Source: a virus
Taxonomy: Duplodnaviria > Caudoviricetes
Virus record (IMG/VR): IMGVR_UViG_3300028833_000074
Location: 1 to 64,000 of that record
Direction: 5' to 3' (one strand)
DNA: 64,000 nt
Positions 2,705 through 54,055 of this stretch are shown in pieces. The notes below the pieces were generated by a model. The model was not told where the DNA came from, did no database searches, and saw only the letters and a list, made by a program, of their open reading frames with translations. How positions within the stretch are numbered: position 1 is the first letter of the stretch; each line of letters begins with the position of its first letter. Both the position numbers and the translations under genes were made by a program.

Positions 2705-2732
2705 TCCCATAAAAATATTTTTAGAGGATATA

Positions 2733-2969: not shown

Positions 2970-2990
2970 TTTTAGAAAAAAAAATTTATC

Positions 2991-3005
2991 TTTAAATAGA
3001 TTAGA
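2991..3005 (+). promoter_or_regulatory. Archaeal-type late promoter, copy 1 (TTTAAATAGATTAGA)
   Basis: TATA box TTTAAATA followed by TTAGA. The same motif occurs at 11748, 28926 and 54089, each in an intergenic gap before an operon. Confidence 0.7.
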
Positions 3006-3062
3006 CATTATATTTCTTTACAACTCACGATTGTGAGCTAAATTTTGGAGAAAGTGATTTCA

Positions 3063-4142: not shown

Positions 4143-4156
4143 ATAGGTGATTTAAG

Positions 4157-4657
4157 ATGAGTGATATTACTGGTGACGCATTTACTATTCATGCAAAAGA
4201 AACCATCGTAAACGCTATTGAACACGTAGGTAAAACCAGTTCCCAAATGCAAGTAGGTAAGGCTATTGCATTAGATGGTGATGACGATGGAGCAAGATTG
4301 GCTATTGCAAGTGACGACCCATCCACTTTTATTGGAATCGTCAAAGCAGCATCCGGCGAATCCCAAGCAACATTTGCGGCTTCAAGAATGGTTAACGACG
4401 CAGTAACTGGTGCAAACCCAACTATGGCTCCTTACTATCAAGGTAATGTAACCATTCCAGAAGGTAAGGCTATGACTGTAGAAAGAAACTGTGTAACCTA
4501 TGTATTAATGAGCGAAGATGTTAAGGCTGGCGAACTTATCGCTTGTGACGCAGATGGTAAATTTAAACCAACATCTGACGCAAGCAAAGCAGTTGGTAGA
4601 GCATACTCTGCTAATGACGCTAACGATGTAGCAAGAGTCTACATCAGAGCAATATAA
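4157..4657 (+). CDS. Capsid decoration/cement protein (putative)
   Basis: 166 aa, Ala/Gly-rich beta protein between the scaffold and MCP. C-terminal 'VKAGELIACDADGKFKP...AVGRA' pattern resembles head decoration proteins. Confidence 0.65.
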   Translation: MSDITGDAFTIHAKETIVNAIEHVGKTSSQMQVGKAIALDGDDDGARLAIASDDPSTFIGIVKAASGESQATFAASRMVNDAVTGANPTMAPYYQGNVTIPEGKAMTVERNCVTYVLMSEDVKAGELIACDADGKFKPTSDASKAVGRAYSANDANDVARVYIRAI

Positions 4658-4670
4658 GGAGATAGATAAA

Positions 4671-5609
4671 ATGGCAAAGAGTTTAGCAAATTTCGCTGGT
4701 GGGGGCGCTGTTGTACACGATAACAGATTTGACCCAGAATTATCTGAAGACATTATCCAATACATCGAACAAGAATCCGACTTCAGACAATTTGTTGCAA
4801 AAGTTATTTCTACCGATACTTACGTAATTAATCTCCCAAGAAAATGGGCAGCCGGTATTGCAGTAGAAATCGTAGAAGGTTCCGAAATTCCTAAAGCAAG
4901 AGATGTATACGACGTCTTAACCATCAATTTAAGACAAATCGGTACTGGTATCAAAATGACCGATGAAGAACAAAAAATGATGGGCTTCGACAACAACTAC
5001 TTCTTAACTGAAGGAAGAAGAGCAACCGAAAGATTACTTAAAAAAGAAAACGACGACATTGCAGCAACTTTATTAACTGGTGCTGGATACAACATTATCA
5101 CTTCCACCAACACAACCTTAAAATTTGATGATATAGTAACTGCAAAAACTGAAATGCAAGAAAATCCATATGGAATTAACCCAGATGTTATTTTAATGTC
5201 TCCACGTTCTTACGCAGATTTATTAAGAGACCCAGACTTTAAAACTTATTCCAACTCCGGTATCGCTGGAGTAGTTACATCTGGAACTGTAGGAGAATAC
5301 GTTGATGGTATGAGAATTCTTATCATTCCAGAAGTTAAAGACGACATCTACTTAATTGATACATCTCAAGAACCACTTGTATTAATCCAAATGGATAGCG
5401 TACATACTGAATCTTACAGATTACATGAAACTCGTGAAGATGTATTAGACATTAATCTTTATGAAAAACCAGCAGTCTTAAGACCAGACGCAATTTGTAA
5501 AATAACCATTACAAGAAACGACACTCTCAAACAAAGAGAATTCCCAGAAGGCTGGGACCCATTCGATGGATATCCACAAAGGCCATCTCCCAGCGGGTCC
5601 GGAGGGTAA
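4671..5609 (+). CDS. Major capsid protein (HK97 fold)
   Basis: 312 aa in the expected position. E-loop 'EIVEGSEIP', backbone helix, 'PDVILMSPRSYADL', 'VDGMRILI', C-terminal 'VLRPDAICKI'. Confidence 0.88.
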   Translation: MAKSLANFAGGGAVVHDNRFDPELSEDIIQYIEQESDFRQFVAKVISTDTYVINLPRKWAAGIAVEIVEGSEIPKARDVYDVLTINLRQIGTGIKMTDEEQKMMGFDNNYFLTEGRRATERLLKKENDDIAATLLTGAGYNIITSTNTTLKFDDIVTAKTEMQENPYGINPDVILMSPRSYADLLRDPDFKTYSNSGIAGVVTSGTVGEYVDGMRILIIPEVKDDIYLIDTSQEPLVLIQMDSVHTESYRLHETREDVLDINLYEKPAVLRPDAICKITITRNDTLKQREFPEGWDPFDGYPQRPSPSGSGG

Positions 5610-5952
5610 CTCCGGTGGTCAACAAGGTCAAGGCGACCAACAAGGTCAAGGTGGCCAACAAGGTCAAAATGACCAACAAGCAACAACACATAATGTAACA
5701 TTTACTGTTACAAATGCTACTAACCAAAAATTATCTGGTGTAACTGTAACATTAACAGACATCAATGATAGTACCAATACTGCATCTGATATAACAGATA
5801 GCGATGGTAGTGTTAGTATCGCTGTTAAGGCCGGTACTTATTCTGTAACTGCAGAAAGAGATACATATACAGCCCCAGCAAGCATTGAAAATGTAACTGT
5901 AACTGATGCTGACGTTGATGTTGCTACTGCGATTGTAATGACAAAAGATTAA
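5605..5952 (+). CDS. Gly/Gln linker + Ig-like (carboxypeptidase-regulatory-like) domain; probable +1-recoded C-terminal extension of the MCP
   Basis: Lies in the +1 frame and overlaps the MCP stop (GGG TAA C -> GGT AAC). No convincing independent start. Ig-like pattern 'VTFTVTN...LSGVTVTL...TDSDGSVSIAVKAGTYSVTAERDTY'. Confidence 0.7.
   Translation, partial: GNSGGQQGQGDQQGQGGQQGQNDQQATTHNVTFTVTNATNQKLSGVTVTLTDINDSTNTASDITDSDGSVSIAVKAGTYSVTAERDTYTAPASIENVTVTDADVDVATAIVMTKD
5620..5679 (+). repeat. 18-bp tandem repeat (CAACAAGGTCAA core) encoding a QQGQG(D/G) linker
   Basis: Three units plus a partial fourth: caacaaggtcaaggcgac / caacaaggtcaaggtggc / caacaaggtcaaaatgac / caacaa. Confidence 0.85.
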
Positions 5953-28940: not shown

Positions 28941-28978
28941 AAATATATTCCTTATTAATTATTTTTTTGAGGTTTAAA

Positions 28979-31900
28979 ATGCAATATTCGGATATTAATT
29001 TTCATAATGACTTTAGAGGCAATTTACGTCAAACAGCATGGAGTTCTCTCTTTCCATATTGGTATACAGAAGATGATTTTCTCAAAACTATCGGTGATGA
29101 GATTGAACTCATAAAAGCACAAGGTGTTTTTAAATTATTAAATATAGGCGTGAAACCACCTATTATGATTTGGCAAACATCTTTAAATCACGAAGAATAC
29201 CATATTAATCAACATATTACCGAAGAAGAAAATATCATACAAATAACAGCCCCTTTATATAAAACATGGGGTATTATTGAAATTACCAGTAATAGTGAAT
29301 TATCTAATTTACAAATCATGATAAATGATAATGATGGTATTGTTATTCCTATTGATATTCCAAAAAACGCACAAATTTATTTAGACCTTGAAAATCAACT
29401 TTTTTATTTAAATAACAAACAAATTAATGTCTTAACCTTTGGACAAGGTATGCCATATTTTATAACAAGTCGTCATAATAAAGTATATAATCATGACACA
29501 CCATTACATAATGAAGTTATTAATCTTACATTTTCTTCAAAAGACCCTATTGATTTAGATGTTGATGTTTTATTAAAAAATGTTGTTTTTGAGAATGAAC
29601 AAAACATTGAAGTAACATCTTTAGAATCATTACCTATTGAAAAAATTGTATTGTATGCTAAATATGATTTCCCTTACAACCCAGATGTTAATGGTTGGAA
29701 AAAGGTTTATGAAAAAAAATATCAATCTGATACTCATGTAGTATATGATATGATTACCACTCGTTTTTATACAAAAAAATTTTATGCAGAAGTATGGTTT
29801 AAGGGTATAGACTATCCATATACAGTTGGATTTCCAGCATATAAAGATGCAGATGCATCATCTATGTATCATGTTAATTCTGAATTAGATACATTAGGTG
29901 AATTATTATCTCTTCCACGAAGAATATACAAAACTGATATACCAGAAGAAGACTATCCTTTTACATTCCCAATTTTTTATCCTTTTGACATTGAACAAGA
30001 TTATTGGTATTACTCTCGATTGGTTAATGAATATTGCTATAATGACTTGGCTATTGATTCTGTAGATATTCTTGATACAGATAACACACCAGTTGTCAGA
30101 TTACATTCAATTAATCCTTTTGTAGAAGATTTCGTTGTTTATAGTCATTCTTCTTATCCAATTGATTATAAAAATATTAATTATCACGAATATATACCAT
30201 CTTTTGTGTCTGAAGTAAATGACAAACTTGGTCATACTTCTCATCATAATATTGAAAATTTATTAAAATATGATGATTATTACACATACAACAATTTATT
30301 AAGTAAATCTAATAATAATATTTCATATGAATCATATAAGTCTAAACCATTATTAATGTGGTTTAATACATCAGACTTACCGGAAGACGTCAATATTACT
30401 GGTTTTGAAATTATTTTAGACGCAGAATCTACTGACAATGCATTCACTAAATATAACGATGAAAGAACAAATTTATTTATTACACCAGATACATTATATG
30501 GTCAAATTCAATCATCCGGCCATTTTGAATTAACTCGTAAAAACATTGTTTATGGTGGTAAGAATGAACTTTTTGAATTAGAATATTTACCAGAAAATGA
30601 TTCACATATCATTCAAAAAATTATCATTAAACCTTTTTCTGGACACCCTAAACAATTAATGGAGATTCCTTTTGTATATTATGAAGATGATAAAATTATT
30701 GATAATATCAATGATGTTTTTGTAGTATTTTATGATGATAATAATGAATGTATCGAATCAAAACAAGGATATTATTATTCTGAATTACGCAATGATAAAA
30801 CATATCGTTATATTGAAGTAGAAGTACCAAATGCAGATAACATTAAAAATATCAGTATCTTGTCTACAACTAATCTATATCATCCTTTTAATGTTAATGT
30901 TGAAGTAGATATGGAAAATGATAGTTTTGAAGGCCCTATTGATGATGATGAAAATATTCATACAGAAACATTTGATAAAGAATGGGATACCGGCAATCTA
31001 CGTGACTTATTAAATGAGTATGGATTATACTTTAACTATGCTTTAACAAATGATAGTGAGAATAATACATCAACTGTATTATTACATAACGCAACCTTAC
31101 GTATTTATCATACACCAAAAACATCACATTTTAAATTAGATACAAATATTATTAATGCATCACGTTTAAATAACACAGCACAACTTGAAGTGCAAATCAC
31201 TAATAATGGAGAAAAAACACTTAATACACATATTGATATTATTAGCGCAAGTAATTTAAAATTATCCAACAATTATATTGAAGTTAATTTACAATCTGGT
31301 GATTCTATCGTTGAAGTTATCGATATAAAACCAGAGTACAATATTCAAGATGGAATTTATGATATTATAACAATATGCGAAGACCAATCTAAAACTAATT
31401 ATATGAAAATTACGTCTGGTGGATTGATTAGAACTAATGTTATATTAAAACCACATTTTACTAAAATTAATAAACAAGTTACTTTAACAGCGCAAGTACA
31501 AACTATTAATAAAGATACAATTAATGGCTCTCCAAATAAAATAGAATTTTATATTAATAATTTTTATGTAGGAGAATCTATTGTTAATCAAAATCAAGCA
31601 GAATACACAATCATACCAAGTGACTATTCATTTATTAACGCTGGTAATGCTAAATTAACTGCAAAATTTATTGATGGCAGTAAATATACAACATCATATG
31701 CGCACAATAATATTTTTATTGATAAAAATGATATTACTATTGATATAAATACTGAAGATACCATTATACAAGGTAAACCATATTACATTAGGGCTAATGT
31801 AACATATGTAGATGATAATGGCGTTCGTCATAATGTAGAAGAAGGCACTATCACAGCATTCATTAATGATGTTGAACTTTTTACAAAAGAATTAAATAAT

Positions 31901-34900
31901 GGTGTATTAGAAGCATATCCAATTATTGATGAAAATGCTGGTGACGCCATATTAACCATTAGATATAACAATACCGATAAATATCCACAAAGTGAAATTA
32001 GCAAAAATGTCGTTATTGTTGGTGGCACAACTCAAGTTACTGTTTTTGATGCCAGCGGTAAACCAAATGATAATGTTACCATAAAGGTGAAAGTAACTGA
32101 TACAAATAATGTTGCTGTGCCATCTGGATATTTAGATTATACTATTAGTGCGCCAGATATTGAAGATATTATTTTAACAGATAGAGAAATACATAATGGT
32201 ATTGATGAAATTAATATCACTATCCCATCTAATATTATTATTGAAGATGACGATGTACGCATTTTAGACGTAACTGTAAATTATCATAATTTACAATCTA
32301 ATAATATGACTGATGACACTTTATTTAATAATAGTCAAGGTGTTGGACATATTTATGTTAAAAAAGGTGACGTATTAATTCAAGATTCTATTTTATTTAA
32401 TGCATCTGCATATGAGCCATTAGGTTTTTATGTAAAAGTTATTGATGCAAATACTGGAGAGCCTATACCGGAAGGACAAGTAACCATTACTATTCCACGC
32501 CAAAATAATATTACTATAACAACTGACGTAGATGAAGATGGTGGAGCAAGATTATTATATAATCCTATTCAATTTACAGCCGATGAATGGAATAAATTAG
32601 AACGTACACGTTTTATTATTTGCGATTCAGACCCACAAGCACTTGACAATAATAGTGAACCATTGTATAACGAGAATCATCCATATGAAATATATTACTC
32701 ACAAGATAGTGACTTATATTATCTTTATGATTATACCGAAGATGAAGAACCTACTTGTGAACTTCTACAACGAATAGGTCGAGATAATTCTGTAAATTTA
32801 CTTGATTTTTATATTGTAGATGGAGTTTTATATTATCAAAGTAATTATGATGACGATATAGAACATATCTATATAGATGAAGATGGTTATTTATATGCAA
32901 GAGCAGCAAACGATTCATTAAGACAATATAATGAAGGAGTATTTGATATCATCATTGATTATAATGGAGGATATCAATACAAAAATCAATTTGCAGAAAG
33001 TAAAATAAAAATTTCTATACCACAAATTGATGTTGATATGCATTCATATAATATGAGTTATAATAATCCTATTAACGTCAAATCTTATATTACTGAATAC
33101 TCATGGGATATACATACGCCAACACAATGGATTCAAGAAGGTACTGTAAATTATTATATTGATGGTAAATTATTAGATTCTGCTAATGTTATTAATGGTT
33201 TGGCTATATTATCAACAAACAAGTTATTATCCATACCACATGGCAAACATTTATTAACTGCTGAATTTGTTGCAGACATGCCTACCTACACACATGTGCT
33301 ACTTAACATTGAACAAATTACGCCAATTATCGAACCACAATTTGATAGAATCTTCTCTAATAAAAAAAGTGAATTAGATGTTTACGTGAGAACACCAAAT
33401 AACTTTGAAGTTAGCGGTGATTTATCTGTTTATATTGATGATGTAGAAATAGGATATGTATTATTAACTGGCGAAGAGGATGGCCACGCACACTTTACCA
33501 TACAAATGCCAAATTTAGAGAATGAAGTACATATACTAAAGATTACATATAGCGGAAACGATTACATTCGTTCTCATGAGATAGAGCAAGTATTACGCCC
33601 AGAGCAACTTGAAGTAACTACAATATGTGAATCTCATATCATAACTACACCGGAAAATACTATACAAATACCAGTACAAATTACATCTCGTGATAACGAT
33701 AATATATCAGAAGGCTATGTTGCATTATTTAATATTGAAAATGACCAAGAAATTGCACGTACATTTATGACAAATAATCGTGGTATGCTTACATTAACTG
33801 CACCAAATGATTATGGCAATTATCAATATAGTGTGCAATATAAAAATGGCGTTAACTATAAAGATGATGAGTTTCACATTATTGATGTGCAAGTTATTGA
33901 AGGCCAAGAGATAGTATATGCTGATGGTAATACAGACCCAGAAAATACTGGACATTATATTGACCTTATAACTGCAATGCGTGCTGTAGTAAATAATGGA
34001 ACAGTATACTTAACTAATGAAGAAAAAAATACTGGTGTTATTAATAATGATTATTATTTCACCAAAGATGTCAATATTATTGGTACAAATGGGGCAAAAA
34101 TTACAAAAGATATGTCTGATTTAATCACTAATGAAGATGATATCAAGATGTATCATCAAGATGACTTTACAGATGAAGATTTTGCCCAAATGCATAAACT
34201 TGACTTTTTATCTAAAGCAAGTTTAAATACATCTGAATATCGTTTAATCAACAAGGATATATATTATATTAACAATAATGAACTTGTACCAGTTTATATT
34301 ATTGATGGTGATTTTTATTCAACTCTTAACATATCCAAAAAACATACAACAATCTATACCAATGGACATAATATCAATCTTCATAATATTATTTTTGAAA
34401 ACAATGACGTAGAAAATGACTTATTAATTTACAACAATGGCGTTCTTACAATTACATATTCAATTATCAATGACAATATTGCAATTGACAATTATGATAC
34501 ATTAACCATTAATCGAAGTTTAATGTATGGAAAATTAAGATTACCATCAAATAACGTTGATTTAAACAATAATTGGTGGGGGTCAAATGAAGCACCTTTC
34601 AATGTTGATAATCATATTATTTTATCAATATCTACATTAGAAACTCCACCAGTAATTAGTGAATCTATCAATGTTCAATTACAATTAATTGGCGCAAATG
34701 GTCGAGAATATTTATTACCAGCACCTTATTTCAAAATGTATGCAGATTCTGGTATTATTGCTCATGAATATGGTCAATTATCAAACTCTAAAATTATCAC
34801 ACAATATGATGATGCTGTTCAAGAAGGAAAAGTATATGGAGAAGTTGATAATCAAATTGTATCATTAGATGTATATGATTACGATAGAAAAACCGAAGTT

Positions 34901-37900
34901 ATATTAGAATCTATACATAAAGTGCCAACCAACCATCAAATTACCCTTAAGGCTATTGTGCAAAGTGTTGCCGATGTATTCTTCAAATTTGACGATAATA
35001 ATAATATTATCAAACAATCTAACTCTATCAATAATGGTTATGTAATTTTCTCATTAAACAACGAACGCATAGGCAAGGCATATGTCCAAGATGGCATTGC
35101 CGAATTGCCTACCTTCTTGTCTGCAAACGTATATTCATTAGGCGATGCTATCTTAAGCGCAAAATATATACCATCCGAATATTATTTTGCATCCGACAGC
35201 AACCAACATATCACCATTATTGATGATAATGAATACTGTTTTATGTCCACATTTGGTGACGACAACAACAATGGAACATTCAACGAACCCGTTCAAACGC
35301 TACAAAGAGCATGCGAATTAGACAAGAAAATTTTAATCAAAGATGGCATATACGAAGGCAATCACATTAGCATTGACAAGGAAACACACATTGAAGCATA
35401 TAATGATAATGTAACCTTTACAAACAATACTTTCATCAATAATGATGACTTATACATTACCGGCATTAATTTTAAAAATAACGATAATGTCATTTTTGAA
35501 AACCATGGCAGATTATATATCAATCAATGTATCTTCACAGACAATCAAGAGTATATTGTTGACAATAATGACGAAAGCATCACATCTATTGTTGATTCAG
35601 TTATCCTTGACAAAAATATAGTAACCGATTATAGCAAATTAAGCACAATGGAATATTGTTGGTTCGGAACAAACGAACCTAATGATAGCGAACAAGGTCC
35701 TATATTAGATGATTACACCATTAATAAGTATTATATTATGAGTGTAGAATCATCTAAAAACATTATTTATATAGGTTCTGTTGTGCGTTTGGTTGCAATG
35801 TTGCAAGATGTTTATGATAATGGCACGATATATCACAATAAAGAACGCCCATTGCCATTAAGAATTGCTTACTTTGAGACTGATGCCGGTTCACTTATGC
35901 CGCTTAAAGACTATACATATCACAAGCAAGCAACTACATTATTAAATACAAATGATAATCTTAACTCAAATAAAGTTATCTTAACAACACCAAAAAACAT
36001 CAACTATATCAATCAACCACTCAAATTGGAAATTTATGTCGATGAAGCAAATGGCTCACCAATACAAAATGGAACAATCACATTAAACATTAATGATGGC
36101 AACAAAACTATTGTACAACATCAAAAGGTCACCATTAATCATGGTATTGCTACATACATAAATGATTCAATTAACCTTACACAAGGTACATATAATTTAA
36201 CTTGTGTATATTATGACAATGCAACAACATATAAAGGTGCATATACTTTTGAAGTAAAGCGAGACGAAGTTCAATTTAATAATATTTACATAGATAATTA
36301 TGACCATATATATGAATTAACTTTTAACGCTGATGTAGTCACAAACTCTGGCAATATTGTCGAACAACAAGAAGTATATTGTTATATTGATGATGTCATG
36401 GCAACCAATACACTTACAAATCGTAATAAATTTATCATTAATAATGGCCAAGCATTATTTAACATGATATATAATGAGATACCAGCCGGTGTACATACCC
36501 TAACAATTACAAATGAAAATTGTTCATCCAGTTATGAAACCTTTAAATTTACAACTAAATTTACAGCATACGAAAAAGAAACAACAATACATTTTAATTA
36601 TAATGGCATTGAACAAAATGTACCAACTGATTTATTAATATCTGTTACCGATAACAATGCCAAAATTATTGATGGTGATATATCAATTTACATTAATGAT
36701 GAAATTGTTGAACAAGATAATCAAACTACATTTGCATTAAACAATGGCCAATATGTATTGCAAGATGTTCAATTAACACAAGGACAATATTCAATCGTAA
36801 TATATTATCATGGCGTAACAGATTATTATCAAGAATCTATTTTCGTTAAAAATGATTTTAACGTTGGTATACATGCTGTACACATTTCAAATGAAGGTCC
36901 AATAACAACATACATTGGTGACGAATATATTTTTGATTTTAACATACTTGATATTTACGATAATATTGTTGAAATCGGTATGGTAAATCTATATGTTAAT
37001 AATAACCTTATTAACGATACACCAATAAATATATCAGAAAATCATCATATCTCATATCCATTTGCAATATCATATTTATCTGCTGGCGTTCACAATTTAA
37101 CAGTTGAATATATTGATGATAGCAATGCATATTTGAATACCAATATATATTTAGATATGATTGTAAATAAAATCGATACTATCATTAGCATAGAACCGAT
37201 TGATAGTTATCCAAATGCTAATGTTAATGTCAATTATGATATTCATACCAATAGCAATAATATGGTTAATAGTGGAATTTTAATTGCTAAATTAGAAGAT
37301 AAAATTATTGGACAAGCACAAGTATCTGATATTATCAATCGTTATATTACATTAAATATACCTTTTAAGCCATCCGGCAATTATGATATTATATTTGAAT
37401 ATTATGATGCAGATAATAAATACGCTAATAATAGTATTACTGTACCTTTAATTATTAAAAATGGTAGCATTAATATTACTACTTCTCATGACAGTTATTA
37501 TCCAAATCAAGAGTTTCCTTTGGAAATTCGCATTACCGATGATAATGATGATGCTGTTAATTATGGATTTGTATCATTATATATTGATAATGTGCGAGAA
37601 TCAGACCCACTTCCAGTTAAATATGGTGAAGTTAGATATCCTTTATTATTAAAACAAATTCGAGATTATCCGATTACAATTGTATATGAAGGAAATGAAT
37701 ATTATCAAGAAACAACATATACACAAAACATTGCTGTAAACAATATACAAATTAGAGACATTAATATTGTTGAAGAATTAAAATCATTACCGGATACAAA
37801 ACATGATTATCATTTAACATTTACAACAATGGATGATTATAATGTTTATGATGGTATTATTGATTTTATATTTGATAGTGATGTAATACATAGTTATTAT

Positions 37901-40165
37901 ATACAAGAAAGCAATAAGGAATTTAATATTGCAATTCCAAATACATACATTGGTAATCATACACTTGAATTATTTTATCATGATTCAGAAATTTTCAGTA
38001 ATTATCACAAAAAATTTGTTTTTGAAATATTACCAAAAACACTTGAATTACATATGGATGATATCGATGTTACGTTGGATAATGATATCGATATTACATT
38101 ACAATTAAATGATATAACAAATGGCTTTATTAAATTTTATATTGGTGATGTTTATACAAATGATAATAACGAATACGAGTTAATTGATAATAACTTAAAA
38201 TTTATTGGCATTGAACAAATTACTGATACAATCATTACTTATTCATATCAATTACCATCAACATTATATTATAATAAATATTATATTAAAGCAGTTTTTG
38301 AAGGCAATAATCAATATGGCGCTTCTGAAACAACATGCTTATTAAATATTATACCACAAGAAACTGTTTTATCTATCCAATCTGATACATATACTGATGA
38401 TGAGTTCCAACGTCCTATTATTGAAGCGACATACCAAGAAACTATTGATATTATAGTTACGAGTAATATTGTAAGCCAAGAGCCTATTTATTTGTATATT
38501 AATAATAAATATATCGGTGAATTATTATTAAATAATTATGAAGGTTTATATCATCTCCCATTGCCAAAAGAATATGTCGAAGGCGAATATGAAATTAAAG
38601 CGGAATATTTAGGTAGTGCAGTTATAAAACCTCAAACAACTTATGCAACATTAAAAATTAATAAATTTACTCCAATCATTCAAACATTAGAATATAATGC
38701 ATATATTGGTGGAGAATTAACGTTAGATAATATTTTATTAGATAATAATAACATACCAATTTATCAAGGTTCTTTAGCATGCACATTAAATAATAATGAT
38801 ATTACAGTATATCCAAGCGTTAGCAAAACTATTACATTGGATAATAATTGCATTCATGATAGTGTGATTACATTAAAGTATGAACCATCAGAAAGTGATG
38901 TTAATAAATTTAACGCATTTGAACAAGATATCTCACTTATTATGAATAAAAATGATTTAAAAATTAATATGCATACTATTCCAGAAGTATATCGTGGTGA
39001 TATTTTTGATGTGCGTTTTGAAGTTACAAGTGAAACAACTACATTGCCAATTAATATTGATGGTTACATTAATGATGAAAACATCTCTATTATTGAAGGT
39101 ATATGCGAATCACAATTAAGTATTGATGTCGAAGAGACTTATAATCGTAGATATACTTTTACTATTAGCATCCCAGAAAATGATATTTTTAATACATTAG
39201 AATCATATCATTTTGATGTGATGTGTCGTAATTATCAAAAGGTTTATGTGGATTATGATACGACAAATAATCATAACATTAATAGTGGTCAAATGGCTCA
39301 TACCATTGAAAAAGGATTAGATTTAGTTGCAGATAATGGAACAATTTATCTATACTCTGATATTACCGATGAAAATATCATTATTGATAAGCGTGTACAT
39401 TTAACTACTGCAGATAATCAACCATGTGTTGAATTTAATCAAGTCCATATTAATAGTGATGCATCATTTAATTTATACAATGTTATTTGTAATAATACAA
39501 CCATACATACTACCAATGCTACATCAATTGATAATTGTAGTTTTATCAATAATGATGATACTGCTATATTAGTGGAGAATGGTGAGTTATATATCAATAA
39601 TACTTTATTCAATAATAACCATGCTACAAATGGTGCGTGTATTTATGTAAGCAATAAAAATAAAAATACAGAAATTACAAATTGTACTTTTACTAACAAT
39701 AGTGCAGATATTTATGGTGGTGCAATTTATTCTGATAAAGGTAATAATGTATTAATCAGTCATTGTATATTTAGACATAATAGCGCTACAAATGGTGCAT
39801 CTATCTATATTAATGGTAATGGTGTTATTTCTGAAAATAATTTTTATGAAAACAATGGTACATCTGAAATTATGATTATCGCTGGTATTATTGAAAGTAT
39901 GTTGAATTTATTCGATGGTAATATTTGCGCTTTTAAAAACAATGGATATATCACTTCTAATATGTGTTATTGGGGTACAAATGATATTATAGAGATTGAA
40001 GATGCATTGTACAATAATAATCTAAATAATAATCAAATCATCATTGACTCATGGTTAATTATGACAGATAACATTATTAATAAATATACCACAAAAGATG
40101 CTCCAGATATACAAACAACTATCAATACAATAAATTACATTGAGTTTGATGGGGGTTCTAAATAA
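28979..40165 (+). CDS. Giant baseplate-anchored adhesin-like protein (many Ig-like domains, three beta-helix modules)
   Basis: ~3,728 aa. N-terminal 'LDTLGELLSLPRR' is baseplate-wedge-like. Repeated Ig-like units (G.V.FYI......G.Y.I.A.Y.G...Y..S). Beta-helix modules end in NNWWGSN / YCWFGTN / MCYWGTN, with GGAIY/NGACIY repeats. Confidence 0.8.
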   Translation: MQYSDINFHNDFRGNLRQTAWSSLFPYWYTEDDFLKTIGDEIELIKAQGVFKLLNIGVKPPIMIWQTSLNHEEYHINQHITEEENIIQITAPLYKTWGIIEITSNSELSNLQIMINDNDGIVIPIDIPKNAQIYLDLENQLFYLNNKQINVLTFGQGMPYFITSRHNKVYNHDTPLHNEVINLTFSSKDPIDLDVDVLLKNVVFENEQNIEVTSLESLPIEKIVLYAKYDFPYNPDVNGWKKVYEKKYQSDTHVVYDMITTRFYTKKFYAEVWFKGIDYPYTVGFPAYKDADASSMYHVNSELDTLGELLSLPRRIYKTDIPEEDYPFTFPIFYPFDIEQDYWYYSRLVNEYCYNDLAIDSVDILDTDNTPVVRLHSINPFVEDFVVYSHSSYPIDYKNINYHEYIPSFVSEVNDKLGHTSHHNIENLLKYDDYYTYNNLLSKSNNNISYESYKSKPLLMWFNTSDLPEDVNITGFEIILDAESTDNAFTKYNDERTNLFITPDTLYGQIQSSGHFELTRKNIVYGGKNELFELEYLPENDSHIIQKIIIKPFSGHPKQLMEIPFVYYEDDKIIDNINDVFVVFYDDNNECIESKQGYYYSELRNDKTYRYIEVEVPNADNIKNISILSTTNLYHPFNVNVEVDMENDSFEGPIDDDENIHTETFDKEWDTGNLRDLLNEYGLYFNYALTNDSENNTSTVLLHNATLRIYHTPKTSHFKLDTNIINASRLNNTAQLEVQITNNGEKTLNTHIDIISASNLKLSNNYIEVNLQSGDSIVEVIDIKPEYNIQDGIYDIITICEDQSKTNYMKITSGGLIRTNVILKPHFTKINKQVTLTAQVQTINKDTINGSPNKIEFYINNFYVGESIVNQNQAEYTIIPSDYSFINAGNAKLTAKFIDGSKYTTSYAHNNIFIDKNDITIDINTEDTIIQGKPYYIRANVTYVDDNGVRHNVEEGTITAFINDVELFTKELNNGVLEAYPIIDENAGDAILTIRYNNTDKYPQSEISKNVVIVGGTTQVTVFDASGKPNDNVTIKVKVTDTNNVAVPSGYLDYTISAPDIEDIILTDREIHNGIDEINITIPSNIIIEDDDVRILDVTVNYHNLQSNNMTDDTLFNNSQGVGHIYVKKGDVLIQDSILFNASAYEPLGFYVKVIDANTGEPIPEGQVTITIPRQNNITITTDVDEDGGARLLYNPIQFTADEWNKLERTRFIICDSDPQALDNNSEPLYNENHPYEIYYSQDSDLYYLYDYTEDEEPTCELLQRIGRDNSVNLLDFYIVDGVLYYQSNYDDDIEHIYIDEDGYLYARAANDSLRQYNEGVFDIIIDYNGGYQYKNQFAESKIKISIPQIDVDMHSYNMSYNNPINVKSYITEYSWDIHTPTQWIQEGTVNYYIDGKLLDSANVINGLAILSTNKLLSIPHGKHLLTAEFVADMPTYTHVLLNIEQITPIIEPQFDRIFSNKKSELDVYVRTPNNFEVSGDLSVYIDDVEIGYVLLTGEEDGHAHFTIQMPNLENEVHILKITYSGNDYIRSHEIEQVLRPEQLEVTTICESHIITTPENTIQIPVQITSRDNDNISEGYVALFNIENDQEIARTFMTNNRGMLTLTAPNDYGNYQYSVQYKNGVNYKDDEFHIIDVQVIEGQEIVYADGNTDPENTGHYIDLITAMRAVVNNGTVYLTNEEKNTGVINNDYYFTKDVNIIGTNGAKITKDMSDLITNEDDIKMYHQDDFTDEDFAQMHKLDFLSKASLNTSEYRLINKDIYYINNNELVPVYIIDGDFYSTLNISKKHTTIYTNGHNINLHNIIFENNDVENDLLIYNNGVLTITYSIINDNIAIDNYDTLTINRSLMYGKLRLPSNNVDLNNNWWGSNEAPFNVDNHIILSISTLETPPVISESINVQLQLIGANGREYLLPAPYFKMYADSGIIAHEYGQLSNSKIITQYDDAVQEGKVYGEVDNQIVSLDVYDYDRKTEVILESIHKVPTNHQITLKAIVQSVADVFFKFDDNNNIIKQSNSINNGYVIFSLNNERIGKAYVQDGIAELPTFLSANVYSLGDAILSAKYIPSEYYFASDSNQHITIIDDNEYCFMSTFGDDNNNGTFNEPVQTLQRACELDKKILIKDGIYEGNHISIDKETHIEAYNDNVTFTNNTFINNDDLYITGINFKNNDNVIFENHGRLYINQCIFTDNQEYIVDNNDESITSIVDSVILDKNIVTDYSKLSTMEYCWFGTNEPNDSEQGPILDDYTINKYYIMSVESSKNIIYIGSVVRLVAMLQDVYDNGTIYHNKERPLPLRIAYFETDAGSLMPLKDYTYHKQATTLLNTNDNLNSNKVILTTPKNINYINQPLKLEIYVDEANGSPIQNGTITLNINDGNKTIVQHQKVTINHGIATYINDSINLTQGTYNLTCVYYDNATTYKGAYTFEVKRDEVQFNNIYIDNYDHIYELTFNADVVTNSGNIVEQQEVYCYIDDVMATNTLTNRNKFIINNGQALFNMIYNEIPAGVHTLTITNENCSSSYETFKFTTKFTAYEKETTIHFNYNGIEQNVPTDLLISVTDNNAKIIDGDISIYINDEIVEQDNQTTFALNNGQYVLQDVQLTQGQYSIVIYYHGVTDYYQESIFVKNDFNVGIHAVHISNEGPITTYIGDEYIFDFNILDIYDNIVEIGMVNLYVNNNLINDTPINISENHHISYPFAISYLSAGVHNLTVEYIDDSNAYLNTNIYLDMIVNKIDTIISIEPIDSYPNANVNVNYDIHTNSNNMVNSGILIAKLEDKIIGQAQVSDIINRYITLNIPFKPSGNYDIIFEYYDADNKYANNSITVPLIIKNGSINITTSHDSYYPNQEFPLEIRITDDNDDAVNYGFVSLYIDNVRESDPLPVKYGEVRYPLLLKQIRDYPITIVYEGNEYYQETTYTQNIAVNNIQIRDINIVEELKSLPDTKHDYHLTFTTMDDYNVYDGIIDFIFDSDVIHSYYIQESNKEFNIAIPNTYIGNHTLELFYHDSEIFSNYHKKFVFEILPKTLELHMDDIDVTLDNDIDITLQLNDITNGFIKFYIGDVYTNDNNEYELIDNNLKFIGIEQITDTIITYSYQLPSTLYYNKYYIKAVFEGNNQYGASETTCLLNIIPQETVLSIQSDTYTDDEFQRPIIEATYQETIDIIVTSNIVSQEPIYLYINNKYIGELLLNNYEGLYHLPLPKEYVEGEYEIKAEYLGSAVIKPQTTYATLKINKFTPIIQTLEYNAYIGGELTLDNILLDNNNIPIYQGSLACTLNNNDITVYPSVSKTITLDNNCIHDSVITLKYEPSESDVNKFNAFEQDISLIMNKNDLKINMHTIPEVYRGDIFDVRFEVTSETTTLPINIDGYINDENISIIEGICESQLSIDVEETYNRRYTFTISIPENDIFNTLESYHFDVMCRNYQKVYVDYDTTNNHNINSGQMAHTIEKGLDLVADNGTIYLYSDITDENIIIDKRVHLTTADNQPCVEFNQVHINSDASFNLYNVICNNTTIHTTNATSIDNCSFINNDDTAILVENGELYINNTLFNNNHATNGACIYVSNKNKNTEITNCTFTNNSADIYGGAIYSDKGNNVLISHCIFRHNSATNGASIYINGNGVISENNFYENNGTSEIMIIAGIIESMLNLFDGNICAFKNNGYITSNMCYWGTNDIIEIEDALYNNNLNNNQIIIDSWLIMTDNIINKYTTKDAPDIQTTINTINYIEFDGGSK

Positions 40166-49473: not shown

Positions 49474-50505
49474 ATGCCATCTTATAATTATAATTGGGAA
49501 ACATCTGATTTTAGTATGGGATTAGGTGAAACTGTAACTATTACATTAAGTTATATCAATAAAGGACAAAGTATCCCTATTTTTGAAGATGGTGTTCAAA
49601 TAGGTACAACAACAACAAACACTTACAATTATACTCCAACAAGTAATGGAACACATACTCTGCATTACTTTGATACTATTTATTGTGAACCTTTGACTGT
49701 TATTGTAACTGGTAACGATACTACAACCCTTAATGGTGCTTTAACAGAACTTGGGGAAACTTTGGCAGATAATCTTGAGAGTATGGGAGTAACTGCAAGT
49801 GCAGATGATGGATTGACAACATTAGCAGTAAAAATACTTAAAATAGGTAAAAATACACCAACACCATCTACTGTCATCTATGAAGATGATTGTAGTGTAG
49901 ACAATACAAACGATTATGGTAGCAGTATACCTTTAAGGAATGGGTCATCAACTATTGCTTATAATAGTAATGGATACTACACCATTACTAATAATAGTTC
50001 TAATTCAGAGAGTTTTATCCCCATAACTGAATTAACTGGACTTACTACTGATTTTACACTTGAATATGACTCCTATGTTCAACAAATAGGTGGTTCAAGT
50101 GGATTAGTAATTTATAATTCATCTACTGCTTGGGTTAAATTGACTGATGATGCAAGTAGTGATAAGAGATTGTGGCATGGTTATAATGATGGTAGTTTTC
50201 ACGAAACTGGTTTCTCTGGTACTGAAACATCATATCAGAAATGGGTTCATTACAAATATACTGTTCAAGATGGTGTTTTTACTATGAAAGTAACTTATAA
50301 TGATAATCAAATTGCTTTTTATGTTACACAAATACATTTTACAATAAATAGTAGTACAAAAATCGGTTTGGATAGCGAATGGGCTTCAAATACTGTTACA
50401 AGATATAAGAACATTATTGTTAAGACATTAGGTAGTGGTGATTGCAGTCAGTACACTACACAAATCAACAATGCAATTGCTTACATAAATGGAGATGGTA
50501 ACTAA
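49474..50505 (+). CDS. Receptor-binding/fibre protein with a lectin-like (ConA/LamG-type) domain
   Basis: Anchor motif 'LADNLESMGV..DGLTTLAVKILKI'; beta-sandwich region 'DFTLEYD...KWVHYKYTVQDG'. Confidence 0.55.
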   Translation: MPSYNYNWETSDFSMGLGETVTITLSYINKGQSIPIFEDGVQIGTTTTNTYNYTPTSNGTHTLHYFDTIYCEPLTVIVTGNDTTTLNGALTELGETLADNLESMGVTASADDGLTTLAVKILKIGKNTPTPSTVIYEDDCSVDNTNDYGSSIPLRNGSSTIAYNSNGYYTITNNSSNSESFIPITELTGLTTDFTLEYDSYVQQIGGSSGLVIYNSSTAWVKLTDDASSDKRLWHGYNDGSFHETGFSGTETSYQKWVHYKYTVQDGVFTMKVTYNDNQIAFYVTQIHFTINSSTKIGLDSEWASNTVTRYKNIIVKTLGSGDCSQYTTQINNAIAYINGDGN

Positions 50506-51308
50506 TGACTAATGACACAACAACTCTTCAAGGTAGCCTTGATGAAATGAAAGACCAGTTAATCTACGAATTAGGTGAAAAGGGAGTTACTACAAGTTAT
50601 GATTCTACTACTGGTTTGTTAGGTTTGATTAATAAGATTAGTGAGATTCAACAAGGGGGTGGTGGTCAAGAGATTGTTTCTTTTGATAATATCACAACAG
50701 AATTTAATTATACACAAAAAAGAGGGAATTATGGATTTAGTGTTAGTATTCCAAGTGGTGTTACAAGTTTAGGAAAAAATTGCTTTAATGGTTGTAGTGG
50801 TTTGACTAATGTTACTATCCCAAGTAGTGTTACAAGTATAGGAGATAGTTGTTTCCAAGGTTGTAGTAGTTTAACCAGTATTACTATTCCAAGTAGTGTT
50901 ACAAGTATAGGAGGTTTTTGTTTCTATAGTTGTAGTGGTTTGAATAGTATTACTATCCCAAATAGTGTTACAAGTATAGGGAATAGTTGTTTCTATAGTT
51001 GTAATGGTTTGAATAGTATTACTATCCCAAGTAGTATTACAAGTATAGGGAATAGTTGTTTCTATAGTTGTAAGGGTTTGAATAGTATTACTATCCCAAG
51101 TAGTGTTACAAGTATAGGAAGTAATTGTTTCAGAAATTGCACTAAACTTGTGGATTATCAATTATACTGGGAAACACCACCAGTAACTTGGTCTTCCAAC
51201 TTAATGCCAAATAACACAAACACATACTTCACTATACCTCAAGGAACAACTGCTAATTATGTAGCGAAAAGTTTCCCAAGTGGTAAACTTGTTGAAAGAA
51301 GTGGATAA
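50505..51308 (+). CDS. BspA-type leucine-rich-repeat (LRR_5) receptor-binding protein
   Basis: Six 23-aa repeats 'IPSSVTSIGxxCFxxCxxLxSIT' after an N-terminal anchor helix. Confidence 0.9.
   Translation: MTNDTTTLQGSLDEMKDQLIYELGEKGVTTSYDSTTGLLGLINKISEIQQGGGGQEIVSFDNITTEFNYTQKRGNYGFSVSIPSGVTSLGKNCFNGCSGLTNVTIPSSVTSIGDSCFQGCSSLTSITIPSSVTSIGGFCFYSCSGLNSITIPNSVTSIGNSCFYSCNGLNSITIPSSITSIGNSCFYSCKGLNSITIPSSVTSIGSNCFRNCTKLVDYQLYWETPPVTWSSNLMPNNTNTYFTIPQGTTANYVAKSFPSGKLVERSG
50748..51152 (+). repeat. Six 69-bp tandem repeats (LRR coding)
   Basis: Units start at 50748, 50817, 50886, 50955, 51024 and 51093. Units 3-5 are nearly identical. Confidence 0.92.
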
Positions 51309-51355
51309 TCCAACAATGCTGAAAAAAAATAAAAAACATTAGGAGAAAATAAAAA

Positions 51356-51664
51356 ATGAAAAAAGAAACAATATATAGTGGATTTGACATCTACTACAAT
51401 GATGAAATTTGCATTGCAGAAGTGGACACAAGCATATTGAATTTGGGCATTCAGAAAAACATCTGGTGTCCGACCGATGCCACCGATACTACTGTGCCAA
51501 AAGCATTAAGACCGAAGGTGCCAGTTACAGTACGTAATAATGGAACTGGACAGATATGGCTTCAATTGAAACCAAATGGATTTTTAGAAGCGTACTCAAC
51601 AAGAGATTGGGATGCGAATAAAGATATAAAAATTAAAGCAACATTAGTATGGAGAAAACAATAA
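51356..51664 (+). CDS. Small beta-rich protein resembling a tail-fibre C-terminal domain
   Basis: AGGAG RBS; 'VPKALRPK...LQLKPNG..' pattern. Confidence 0.5.
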   Translation: MKKETIYSGFDIYYNDEICIAEVDTSILNLGIQKNIWCPTDATDTTVPKALRPKVPVTVRNNGTGQIWLQLKPNGFLEAYSTRDWDANKDIKIKATLVWRKQ

Positions 51665-51689
51665 AATATTTTATTTTTGGAGTTACAAT

Positions 51690-51890
51690 ATGATTAAAGA
51701 AGTATTATTGGGATTGGGAATAATTGGAATCATTGTTTTATTTTGTTTGATTACTTTAATTCCTCTTATTTGTACAATTATTTTAGGCACGTATTTTGCA
51801 ACCACAATTGGATTAGAAGGCATAACTTGGTGGGCTTTTGTAATTATTTTTTATTTAATTATAGCGGGAATTTTAGGAGCGTTGACATAA
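51690..51890 (+). CDS. Small membrane protein, putative holin
   Basis: 66 aa, almost entirely hydrophobic (2-3 transmembrane segments), GGAG RBS, upstream of the endolysin. Confidence 0.55.
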   Translation: MIKEVLLGLGIIGIIVLFCLITLIPLICTIILGTYFATTIGLEGITWWAFVIIFYLIIAGILGALT

Positions 51891-51891
51891 T

Positions 51892-52764
51892 ATGAAAATA
51901 AAATTAATGTTATTGTTATTTATTTTATTTATGTGCATTGGTAGTGCATATGGTGGAAATAACACTACAGACATACCGAATCCCCAAATGTTAGAAGATA
52001 TCGGATTAAACACTACCATAGCATTAGAAAGTGGTGATAGTAACATAACATTCAGTAATAATATGACTGGTTACTGTATAGAATATCGTGAACATAGTGC
52101 AAATGCCAATGATACATTCTATATAGCAAATACATCAAAAACAATAAACAAGAATGATGGGTCTGATGTTAGCAATTATCTGAAAACATTTTTCATAAAA
52201 TTCTACAATCACACACTTCAAAATAACTTGACACATCGTGGGGAGCCAGTAAGTCAATCAATTTTTAATCAGCATATCATATGGCATTTCACAAATAATT
52301 TCACTTCACCAGTTACAGTCAACAGTTCTTGGTTAATAGATGGAATAATTAAAGAGTCGTTGAGAGAGAAGTTGAATGATAATGGTTATTATGATTATGA
52401 TAATGATACAAGGGCTTATTATAGTTTTGCTACTTTATTGGCAAGTTATGAAGAATACCAAAACTTTTTCGCTTATAATATTTATTTCACCGGTATTCCT
52501 TGTGACCATAATAACAACACCACCGATAATATTAATGAAACCATCAATGAAACAAACACAACCAACAGCAACACTACAGATAATCAAACAAACATTAACA
52601 ATACTACAGCACTTAACTTGAATATGCAAGAAAACAACAACACGTATACACTCAACAATGATAAATATATAGACTTGGTAAAACATAAAACTGGAAACAA
52701 TATCATAATATTGATAATAATCATAATATGTATACTCTGTATAAGTGCATTAACGAGAAAATGA
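51892..52764 (+). CDS. Secreted, C-terminally anchored Cys-Gln thioester-domain (TED)-like surface protein
   Basis: Signal peptide; GYCIE (Cys62), NQHIIWHF (TQxAIW-like), YQNFF (Gln190); Asn/Thr stalk; 'KTGN' followed by a hydrophobic helix and RK tail. Confidence 0.7.
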   Translation: MKIKLMLLLFILFMCIGSAYGGNNTTDIPNPQMLEDIGLNTTIALESGDSNITFSNNMTGYCIEYREHSANANDTFYIANTSKTINKNDGSDVSNYLKTFFIKFYNHTLQNNLTHRGEPVSQSIFNQHIIWHFTNNFTSPVTVNSSWLIDGIIKESLREKLNDNGYYDYDNDTRAYYSFATLLASYEEYQNFFAYNIYFTGIPCDHNNNTTDNINETINETNTTNSNTTDNQTNINNTTALNLNMQENNNTYTLNNDKYIDLVKHKTGNNIIILIIIIICILCISALTRK

Positions 52765-52784
52765 TAGATAAATAAGTGGATACT

Positions 52785-53885
52785 ATGAAATCAACATTAA
52801 TTAAACAAGAAGCAAAAGAAATACAAGCATTCATTGAAAAAAACAAAGAATTGCCAAAAATCTGTACCATTAATGGTAATGAATACAGCATCTACAGCAC
52901 TTCTTACTTGATTGCAAAATTGCTTGACACCAAACAAAGTGACATCAAGCCGATAACTGTATCAGCACCATCAACAACAATCACGACAAAAATCAATGAA
53001 CAAGTCACATCCCCAGATTATAAGGATATGATTAAAAGATTTGTCCAATATGTTGAAGCCAACAAAAAGGTGCCGGCATACGTCACTACAGTCAAAAGCA
53101 AAACAAAAGTTGAATACAAATTATTTGTATATTGCATGTGTAAGATAATCAATTTTTACTATAAGAATTCTAATACCTTGCCATTGTATTGTGTATTTAA
53201 TGATGCGGATTTTAAAAAATCTGCAACCACTACAAAAACTACACAAAAAACAACAAAGACATCTACATCAGCAACAAAAAAAACAACAACAAAATCAAAA
53301 TGTAGCAACCCATACACATCATCACCACATTACACCTCAAATGGCTGTAATAAATTAGGACAATGCACCGGATGGTGGTGCGGTCCTCATTCCATTCACC
53401 AAGCAATACGCAAATTCGGTATCACAAAATATACCGAAAAACAAATTGCTGGATGGGCTGGTACCACAACTGCCGGAACTGGACATTCTGGCTTGAACAC
53501 AGCAATTGCAAAAATATCAAACATGAGCGGTAAAAAATTATCTGTACAATGGAAAAATTTCTCCGATATGGGTGCGAACAGCGCAGAACGTTTTGCTAAT
53601 ATCGCTAAATTAATTTGTAAAGACGATGTTGCAATTATCTGGCATATTGCATATATCAATGGGGGTAACAGTACAAGCGGCAAACACTTTGGACACTATG
53701 AATGCATTGACAAAATCAATACAGCAACCAAGTATGTAAGAGCGCTTAACTCATTAGGCGACAAAAAATCTGATGGCAGTTATGCTGGAAAACTACAAGA
53801 CAGACCATATGATGTTCAAGGATACTTTGCACGCAATACGCCAGGCGGACAGCCAGCATTATGTATCATTAAGGTGATAAAATGA
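52785..53885 (+). CDS. Endolysin: pseudomurein endoisopeptidase-like (pseudomurein-binding repeats + C39-type cysteine peptidase, PeiR-like architecture)
   Basis: PMB-like repeats (IQAFIEKNKELP; FVQYVEANKKVPAYV; IINFYYKNSNTLP), a Thr/Lys linker, and catalytic 'QCTGWWCGPHS...GTT..GT...GHYECI...LNSL'. Confidence 0.85.
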   Translation: MKSTLIKQEAKEIQAFIEKNKELPKICTINGNEYSIYSTSYLIAKLLDTKQSDIKPITVSAPSTTITTKINEQVTSPDYKDMIKRFVQYVEANKKVPAYVTTVKSKTKVEYKLFVYCMCKIINFYYKNSNTLPLYCVFNDADFKKSATTTKTTQKTTKTSTSATKKTTTKSKCSNPYTSSPHYTSNGCNKLGQCTGWWCGPHSIHQAIRKFGITKYTEKQIAGWAGTTTAGTGHSGLNTAIAKISNMSGKKLSVQWKNFSDMGANSAERFANIAKLICKDDVAIIWHIAYINGGNSTSGKHFGHYECIDKINTATKYVRALNSLGDKKSDGSYAGKLQDRPYDVQGYFARNTPGGQPALCIIKVIK

Positions 53886-54055
53886 ATTATTTAGATATTT
53901 TACAAAAGATTAACAATATTTTATATAACATTTTTGGAGACAAAAAATTTGTTATCAATTTTCAAGTTTATATCAATCAAAAAAGATTTAAATTAAATAA
54001 AACTGATGCAACAGAGATTATTATTGAAGATGATGATGGAAAATTTGTGCAATAA
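53882..54055 (+). CDS. 57-aa protein absent from the ORF track (MNYLDILQKINNILYNIFGDKKFVINFQVYINQKRFKLNKTDATEIIIEDDDGKFVQ)
   Basis: Strong AAGGTGAT RBS, ATGA overlap with the endolysin stop, ends at the terminator. Confidence 0.75.
   Translation: MNYLDILQKINNILYNIFGDKKFVINFQVYINQKRFKLNKTDATEIIIEDDDGKFVQ

Follow-up and report, generated by a model that had tools for sequence, protein, structure and literature searches.

The gene P0001, located at positions 51892 to 52764 of a viral DNA stretch of 64,000 nucleotides (the whole of which is hereafter called the window), probably encodes a virus-borne adhesin with a Cys-Gln thioester domain (TED) of the Gram-positive type, adapted to a pseudomurein-walled archaeon. 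The window comprises the first 64 kb of the IMG/VR virus record IMGVR_UViG_3300028833_000074 (Caudoviricetes), which is 152,284 bp long, is classified as complete by CheckV, and has a G+C content of 30.7%. The host of this virus is Methanobrevibacter, because the virus encodes a PMBR lysin, homologues of the TED protein are found in Methanobrevibacter metagenome-assembled genomes (MAGs), and its tail-fibre and baseplate genes are common to other such contigs. According to structure prediction, the TED fold of P0001 is almost certain, and sequence conservation makes it very likely that the domain forms a functional thioester. The elements of the gene are the following:

51892-52764, plus strand: gene P0001 for the TED surface protein, an open reading frame (ORF) of 290 amino acids (aa), supported by homologues, conservation, an AlphaFold2 (AF2) model and structural alignment
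51892-51954, plus strand: predicted Sec-type signal peptide (aa 1-21) with predicted cleavage between AYG and GNNTT, from sequence reading, a family-wide junction and a helix at residues 2-15 of the model
52009-52506, plus strand: thioester domain (aa 40-205), from a predicted local distance difference test (pLDDT) score of 95-99, VIA-align, Foldseek and the ESM Atlas
52075-52077, plus strand: codon of Cys62, the predicted thioester Cys, in GYCIE (motif [YFL]C-Phi-zeta), from conservation and its place in strand 59-62
52267-52284, plus strand: NQHIIW (aa 126-131), corresponding to the helix motif TQxx-Phi-W, within helix 122-135; relatives read TQHxIW
52459-52461, plus strand: codon of Gln190, the predicted thioester Gln, in YQN, from conservation, loss together with Cys and its offset in structural alignments
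52507-52677, plus strand: Asn/Thr-rich stalk (aa 206-262) with 10 N-x-S/T sequons, predicted to be disordered (pLDDT <50 over residues 213-257), from the model and a sequon map
52678-52761, plus strand: predicted C-terminal sorting signal, VKHK-TG-NN followed by a hydrophobic helix and RK, with T267 and G268 encoded at 52690-52695

Predicted structure and conserved motifs of the thioester domain

Modelling of P0001 with AF2 from the single sequence was uninformative (pLDDT 36), and the confident model described here was built on a 124-row alignment of relatives. The model matched 12 of the 12 solved TED entries in VIA-align (Z 7.5-9.7, with 137-146 residues aligned over model positions 35-204), the next unrelated chain having a Z of 2.2. 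Foldseek searches against the PDB also returned TEDs in all of the top ~28 rows, with marginal E-values starting at 1.4e-3. The closest cluster in the ESM Atlas was an unnamed Methanobacteriota family, followed by six bacterial clusters in which the Pfam TED domain is present in 43-100% of the members (100% in five of them), some being annotated as Cys-Gln thioester bond-forming surface proteins. Gln190 of P0001 lies 8, 8, and 7 residues from the end of the structural alignments with 5a0g, 2xi9, and 5a0l, respectively, matching Gln267, Gln575, and Gln261 of these structures. P0001 scored better against 5a0g and Cpa than against 6fwv and 6fwy, and this, along with its clear Q motif, suggests a TED similar to class I. 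No TED-like viral protein was detected in BFVD by Foldseek (best E 0.048).

Three sequence motifs define TEDs, namely [YFL]C-Phi-zeta, TQxx-Phi-W, and Phi-Q-zeta-Phi-Phi (PMC4450167), and their counterparts in P0001 are YCIE in strand 59-62, NQHIIW (continued by HFT) in the central helix, and YQNFF (189-193) in the C-terminal sheet. Moreover, the predicted thioester residues are separated by 128 residues in P0001 vs. 129 in CpTIE-TED. Homologues of P0001, all of them unnamed, numbered 33 in a word-indexed search and 135 in an exhaustive search of cluster representatives. Residues G60, Y61, C62, Q127, I130, and W131 were invariant, and Q190 and N191 almost so, among 34 homologues sharing 29-94% identity, which argues that the motifs are not due to chance. 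The first position of the TQ motif is more variable: distant relatives have TQHxIW, Thr is present in 50 of 124 relatives, and Asn replaces it in the clade of the window.

The two predicted thioester residues showed a correlated pattern of loss. The Cys is kept in 121 of the 124 relatives and the Gln in 119; all three Cys-less rows are also Gln-less, and just two of the 121 Cys-bearing relatives lack the Gln. This is the pattern expected for a functional pair, although the three rows may share ancestry. Thus, the TED identity put forward in a preliminary description of this DNA is supported by the predicted fold, the three motifs, their conservation, and the correlated loss of Cys and Gln. As a separate observation, in three bacterial-like proteins (P0110, P0114, and P0162) the thioester Cys and Gln are gone and the fold motifs and LPxTG tail are retained, so that they may represent non-covalent derivatives.

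Profile searches connected the family to TEDs through its members. Of the 34 close relatives, scanned individually, 18 matched the Pfam TED profile at E<=1, the best E being 1.3e-4; in the wider set of 124, 42 did so at E<=0.01, with a best E of 4.7e-5. A few longer relatives also bear Cna_B, and two match Pfam Gram_pos_anchor. When PDB sequences were searched with HMMER, the family profile picked the TED chains 5a0d, 5a0g, and 4c0z, with the TQ helix as the aligned region and, for 4c0z, the Q-N motif as well; a phmmer search of PDB sequences with P0001 returned chance antibody matches only.

Protein layout and potential N-glycosylation sites

The N-terminus of P0001 consists of MKIK and a hydrophobic stretch, followed by the AYG/GNNTT junction. 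In a 34-sequence alignment, a junction of the form A-x-[GA]/G-N-N-T-T after a hydrophobic N-terminus was kept in viral and cellular members of the family, which fits cleavage by signal peptidase and a conserved, glycosylated mature N-terminus. A reading of P0001 as a lipoprotein was dropped, since there is no conserved lipobox and the position of Cys15 varies. The length of the stalk differs between the aligned homologues. P0001 contains 22 N-x-S/T sequons, vs. 8.1 +/- 2.4 in shuffles of its own sequence, and none of 5000 shuffles reached 22. When the 83 non-overlapping ORFs of at least 150 aa from the whole 152-kb virus were ranked for sequon enrichment, P0001 came first (z 5.8), the next ORF having a z of 3.1 and the median being 0.03.

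The sequence elements listed in the preliminary description could all be located. These comprise a signal peptide, whose cleavage junction is conserved in relatives; the three TED elements in the right order (GYC with Cys62 at 52075, NQHIIW at residues 126-131, and YQN with Gln190 at 52459); an Asn/Thr stalk, found at residues 206-262 and disordered in the model; a C-terminal anchor consisting of KTGN, a hydrophobic helix of 17 residues, and RK; roughly twenty sequons, of which 22 were counted; and a gap of 1 nt to the upstream gene, a 66-aa ORF that ends at 51890, the ATG of P0001 being at 51892. The same description regarded P0001 as a host-surface rather than a virion protein. This reading is supported by predicted features, because the signal peptide, the extreme sequon enrichment, and a sortase-type signal that is unique in the virus all suggest display on the host cell.

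The C-terminal tail and the host sortase

After the TG motif, the tail of P0001 continues with NN, 17 hydrophobic residues, and T-R-K, and a helix spans residues 271-288 of the model. G268 is almost invariant within an otherwise unalignable stalk. Of the 165 family proteins that were retrieved, 119 have a C-terminus in which [T/S/C]-G is followed by a small number of polar residues, a hydrophobic helix, and a basic tail, the remainder being mostly fragments. The consensus is L(-5)-x-K-[Y/H]-K-T-G-N in 61 Asn/Lys/Ile-rich members (archaeal or viral) and [V/L]-P-x-T-G-D, the canonical sortase signal, in 58 bacterial-like members. Because the tails form a graded series to the [VL]PxTGD of the bacterial-like relatives, that of P0001 is, by position and descent, a predicted diverged LPxTG-type sorting signal. 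Signals of the archaeosortase type, such as PGF-CTERM, were considered as well; the motif in this family is TG, with a gradation to LPxTG. No other ORF of the virus has a tail of this type, and no sortase was found in the virus.

A single sortase (PF04203, above cut-off, with GHRT, TC, and R motifs) was present in each of five Methanobrevibacter genomes (5/5). For Methanobrevibacter ruminantium and M. smithii, a sortase and a few LPxTG proteins have been described (PMC2812497), and a cluster of genes conserved among archaea with pseudomurein includes a sortase E (PMC11915815). The sortase loci (L035-L039) show a conserved arrangement of three genes, in which a ~390-aa membrane protein is encoded upstream and the start of a gene for a 123-aa protein overlaps the sortase stop; this arrangement matches the pseudomurein-associated 'cluster C' (PMC11915815). 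Covalent anchoring of P0001 to pseudomurein and plain membrane anchoring would be about equally probable.

The TED gene is an optional cassette next to the lysin gene

The genomic context of P0001 is defined by three further features:

51690-51890, plus strand: holin-like, strongly hydrophobic small membrane protein of 66 aa, from its ORF, position and homologue family
51882-52778, plus strand: 897-bp cassette of the window that is missing from the close relative L042 and holds exactly the TED gene, from blastn
52776-53885, plus strand: Pei (pseudomurein endoisopeptidase)-type lysin with PMBR and a Cys/His peptidase region, from Pfam PMBR, PHROGs and orthologue annotation

The ORF at 52776-53885 is a predicted pseudomurein endoisopeptidase of the PeiW/PeiP type, as it matches Pfam PMBR (E 1.6e-9, above cut-off) and the PHROG families for endolysin and pseudomurein endoisopeptidase (phrog_37889); its orthologue is annotated with PMBR and, weakly, Peptidase_C39_2. 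Hence, the endoisopeptidase that had been described downstream of the TED gene was recovered. The putative holin described upstream was borne out as regards position, small size, and hydrophobicity, but its Pfam holin match has an E of just 0.11, no PHROG matched, and the charged C-terminal tail typical of holins is missing. The tentative label holin is based on size, hydrophobicity, and position beside Pei in L042, and the protein belongs to a family of 63 homologues of 62-86 aa. Its gene immediately precedes TED in three viral lineages.

In the blastn comparison with L042, window positions 51353-51881 aligned with 2696-3192 and window positions 52779-53986 with 3192-4404, so that the flanks of the cassette abut in L042. 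There, the small membrane gene directly overlaps the start of Pei with no TED between them. The orthologues in both genomes share 67% identity for the upstream gene, 71% for the small membrane protein, 67% for Pei, and 55% for the downstream gene. The TED gene is thus an optional accessory cassette at the holin-like/Pei junction. Metagenomes commonly contain either form: the membrane protein of the L042 type was found in 27 collection blocks and the TED of L028 in 37. The Pei orthologue of L042 (3198-4298) is split into ORFs of 79 and 284 aa, and that of a sister contig is intact (366 aa), so that the lysin of L042 is either disrupted or wrongly assembled.

A TED gene directly upstream of a PMBR lysin was observed in four diverged viral lineages, including that of the window. 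The relatives with this order show 75% identity in L028-L031 (plus ten more similar places), 51% in L032 and L033, and 39% in L034, and baseplate or fibre genes lie near the pair in the L028-L034 loci. Other arrangements were also detected. In L043 the small membrane gene is followed by TED and then by a fibre-like gene, with no Pei. In L025-L027 the small membrane gene and TED lie beside a C5 DNA methylase, away from structural genes; no Pei homologue was found in these three virus records, one of which is a 104.7-kb CheckV-complete record, and the lone PMBR match, which is sub-threshold, lies ~60 kb from TED. As for the holin-TED-Pei synteny whose survey had been proposed as a check, the TED-lysin order recurs in four lineages, whereas L042 has no TED and other lineages have no adjoining Pei. 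In L045 (3001-5001), the slot after the small membrane gene holds a 521-aa Big_1 adhesin-like protein, not a TED. Since the contents of this slot vary (TED with Pei, TED without Pei, or a Big_1 protein), the data suggest that it serves as a site for surface-protein cargo, located where the fibre module ends.

Cellular members of the family

In four Methanobrevibacter MAGs, members of the TED family occupy the same conserved locus, flanked by RadB (Rad51 family) and Sua5/YrdC and close to ABCE1, with no viral genes nearby. These chromosomal TED-like genes are located at 5986-6888 in L006, 5986-6939 in L009, 5842-6765 in L015 (with a second copy at 4711-5733), and 5791-6855 in L016. Judging from their sequences, the RadB-Sua5 genes are a putative core adhesin family of Methanobrevibacter, hitherto unannotated, with an xTG sorting tail. 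They share with P0001 the architecture, the sorting tail, the GNNTT mature N-terminus, and 29-37% identity, but differ in that they occupy a housekeeping locus, form clades separate from the viral ones, and have no adjoining small membrane gene or lysin. A quick maximum-likelihood tree, for which bacterial-like members served as the root and the near-identical loci L027, L029-L031, and L033 were omitted, placed all seven viral copies and five short cellular copies in one clade with 100% support in the approximate likelihood ratio test (SH-aLRT), and the copies of the RadB-Sua5 locus outside it.

No homologue of P0001 was found by tblastn in 50,697 deposited phage genomes. A TED gene, a Pei-like gene, and a fibre gene like that of the window are present in L011 (JAGAIU010000011.1, 146.8 kb), a contig binned as a Clostridia bacterium that probably stems from a Methanobrevibacter virus and was assigned to a bacterial MAG by mistake.

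Proposed mechanism and alternative explanations

The TED gene lies on the same strand as the late tail-fibre and lysis genes, the gaps measure 1-25 nt, and the virus lacks an integrase, which suggests that these genes would be transcribed together. The product would be exported by the Sec pathway, with the signal peptide cut after Gly21, and a host oligosaccharyltransferase of the AglB type, an enzyme that belongs to the envelope model of M. ruminantium (PMC2812497), could N-glycosylate up to 22 sequons, as their enrichment suggests. Homology, conservation, and the joint loss of both residues indicate that, once the TED has folded, Cys62 and Gln190 would autocatalytically make the internal thioester. 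The L-x-K-[H/Y]-x-T-G-N motif, the helix, and the basic tail would retain P0001 in the membrane; at this point the single host sortase might link Thr267 to pseudomurein, a step with roughly even chances, or else the protein would stay as a type-I membrane protein. The glycosylated stalk would display the TED beyond the wall, where, by analogy with SfbI and Cpa, attack of the thioester by a target amine would create a permanent isopeptide link.

What such a link would be used for is a matter of graded likelihood. Because the cellular homologues resemble ordinary adhesins, the virus appears to be lytic, and the gene lies in a late operon, the favoured role, held at somewhat less than even likelihood, is that P0001 tethers the infected cell, and the remains of its wall once it has lysed, covalently to nearby cells or particles, so that the burst takes place amid new hosts. 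A narrower version, in which the virus would contribute both partners of a covalent wall chemistry and the TED is fixed to pseudomurein by the host sortase and then bonds the Lys epsilon-amines exposed by Pei on the same or neighbouring cells, is rather improbable; if true, lysis would be coupled with covalent cell-to-cell or debris tethering, and L-x-K-[H/Y]-x-TGN would define a class of substrates for an archaeal sortase for the first time.

Several observations weigh against the explanation of P0001 as an adhesin of the Gram-positive type. The protein itself gave no Pfam TED match at E<=1, and nothing relevant was found for it in Pfam, NCBIfam, or PHROGs; as a result, the comparison with thioester-domain profiles proposed in the preliminary description was positive for part of the relatives and negative for P0001. 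The protein is below the gathering score of Pfam TED (PF08341), its membership therefore resting on fold and motifs, and none of the matches of the relatives was shown to be above that score. The LPxTG pentapeptide is absent in P0001, in which V-K-H-K-T-G-N shares TG alone and has [H/Y] instead of Pro, and we know of no characterised substrate motif of an archaeal sortase. In addition, the cassette of L025-L027, far from any detectable lysin, fits a 'moron' of benefit to the host better than a link with lysis, and an adhesin anchored by sortase shortly before lysis would bring no obvious pay-off.

Different functions for the same protein were also considered. On the cell that makes it, the TED could bond the receptor used by the virus itself, or amines of pseudomurein, thereby blocking superinfection and sparing the progeny from binding to debris, as phage T5 Llp does with FhuA. 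In favour of this, the gene lies in a late position beside the lysis genes of a virus without integrase, it forms an optional cassette, which is frequent for exclusion genes, and P0001 is the sole wall- or membrane-anchored protein of the virus. Nevertheless, such receptor masking, the next option after tethering, is unlikely, as the chromosomal homologues at the RadB-Sua5 locus suggest a general role in adhesion, a long glycosylated stalk directs the domain outwards instead of towards the wall of the cell that bears it, and the link with a receptor is conjectural. Similarly unlikely is that P0001 acts outside the virus cycle, as a captured adhesin that helps the carrier attach to hydrogen-producing partners or gut surfaces. 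The chromosomal, syntenic occurrence of the family in Methanobrevibacter, the position of the L025-L027 cassette, and the Big_1 adhesin-like protein of L045 would be in agreement with a moron of this kind; however, the search with the tyrosine-integrase family found no integrase in the 152-kb CheckV-complete record, which makes long-term carriage doubtful, and the gene is embedded in a late operon.

A functional partnership with the lysin is suggested by the gene order conserved in four diverged lineages. Pei cuts the epsilon-Ala-Lys cross-link, and the thioester, like known TED thioesters that react with Lys amines (PMC4450167), might react with the freed Lys epsilon-amines, either capping the cut stems against re-linking or fixing P0001 to the opened wall. 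This is improbable, since the close relative L042 lyses without a TED, other lineages carry a TED without an adjacent or detectable Pei, and the cellular homologues are not beside lysins. The domain might also be an inert TED shape, a glycoprotein spacer or decoy devoid of thioester, given that the thioester of P0001 is a prediction and that Asn replaces the Thr of the TQ motif in the window's clade. The near-invariance and joint loss of Cys and Gln make this quite unlikely, and the Thr, Gln, and Trp of the helix motif are not needed for bond formation in Cpa (PMC4450167). Finally, the tail-fibre genes on both sides of the TED/lysis stretch could suggest a virion protein whose TED, mounted on the tail or fibres, would act as a harpoon that fastens the virion irreversibly to the host wall. 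The assembly site of tailed virions is the cytoplasm, whereas the signal peptide, the C-terminal membrane/sorting signal, and the top-ranking sequon enrichment indicate export, so that this reading is very improbable.

Comparison with known systems

P0001 shares with the class I TEDs (CpTIE-TED, 5a0g; Cpa, 2xi9/4c0z; SfbI, 5a0l; PF08341) the fold (Z 8.1-9.7) and the three motifs in the same order and secondary-structure context, and the proteins have a common layout of signal peptide, TED, stalk, and C-terminal sorting signal. The differences are also clear. Identity to class I TEDs is 10-13%, below Pfam detection; the stalk of P0001 is a predicted disordered linker rich in N-glycans, instead of isopeptide or ester Ig domains; and P0001 is encoded by a virus of a pseudomurein-walled archaeal host and ends in L-x-K-[H/Y]-x-TGN, in contrast to LPxTG.

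The TED adhesin of plasmid pLS20 from Bacillus subtilis provides another case of a mobile element that encodes a thioester adhesin shown on the carrier, where it promotes contact with the next host and is needed for conjugation (PMC8092201). It differs from P0001 in being a class II TED on a bacterial plasmid, with a mating function shown by experiment (PMC8092201). Among mobile elements it is the closest functional analogue of P0001.

Viruses are also known to carry proteins that reach the host surface and alter adhesion, such as SasX of a staphylococcal prophage and PblA/PblB of the Streptococcus mitis phage SM1. PblA/B are fibre proteins that depend on phage lysis genes and bind again after lysis. 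In contrast to the prediction for P0001, neither SasX nor PblA/PblB involves thioester chemistry.

A survey published in 2015 considered TEDs exclusive to Gram-positive bacteria (PMC4450167). Full-text searches found no literature linking thioester domains with Methanobrevibacter, archaeal adhesin-like proteins, or archaeal viruses, and the archaeal 'TED' papers retrieved were discarded, as they deal with the unrelated CxEQ domain of complement/alpha2-macroglobulin. Thus, no earlier report of a Cys-Gln TED fold in archaea or their viruses was found, and the statement in the preliminary description that the arrangement is not a described system agrees with these searches. The family would extend covalent thioester adhesion chemistry to archaea, specifically to Methanobrevibacter, which dominates among the methanogens of gut and rumen, and to several viral lineages. 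It also supplies putative substrates of the conserved archaeal sortase, along with a motif that this enzyme may recognise, and names a testable mechanism for the attachment of methanogens, or infected methanogens, to their partners. Possible uses include anti-methanogen vaccine targets and new glycosylated, self-ligating protein tags.

Other genes of the fibre and baseplate regions

In the tail-fibre cluster just upstream of the cassette, a BspA-type leucine-rich-repeat protein (LRR_5, E 1.3e-55) is encoded at window positions 50505-51308. Its N-terminal ~48 residues are common with the fibre genes that adjoin in relatives (87% identity in L028). The baseplate region contains an 11-kb ORF (window 28967-40165, ~3,700 aa) with 30% identity to the gene that follows Baseplate_J in L034.

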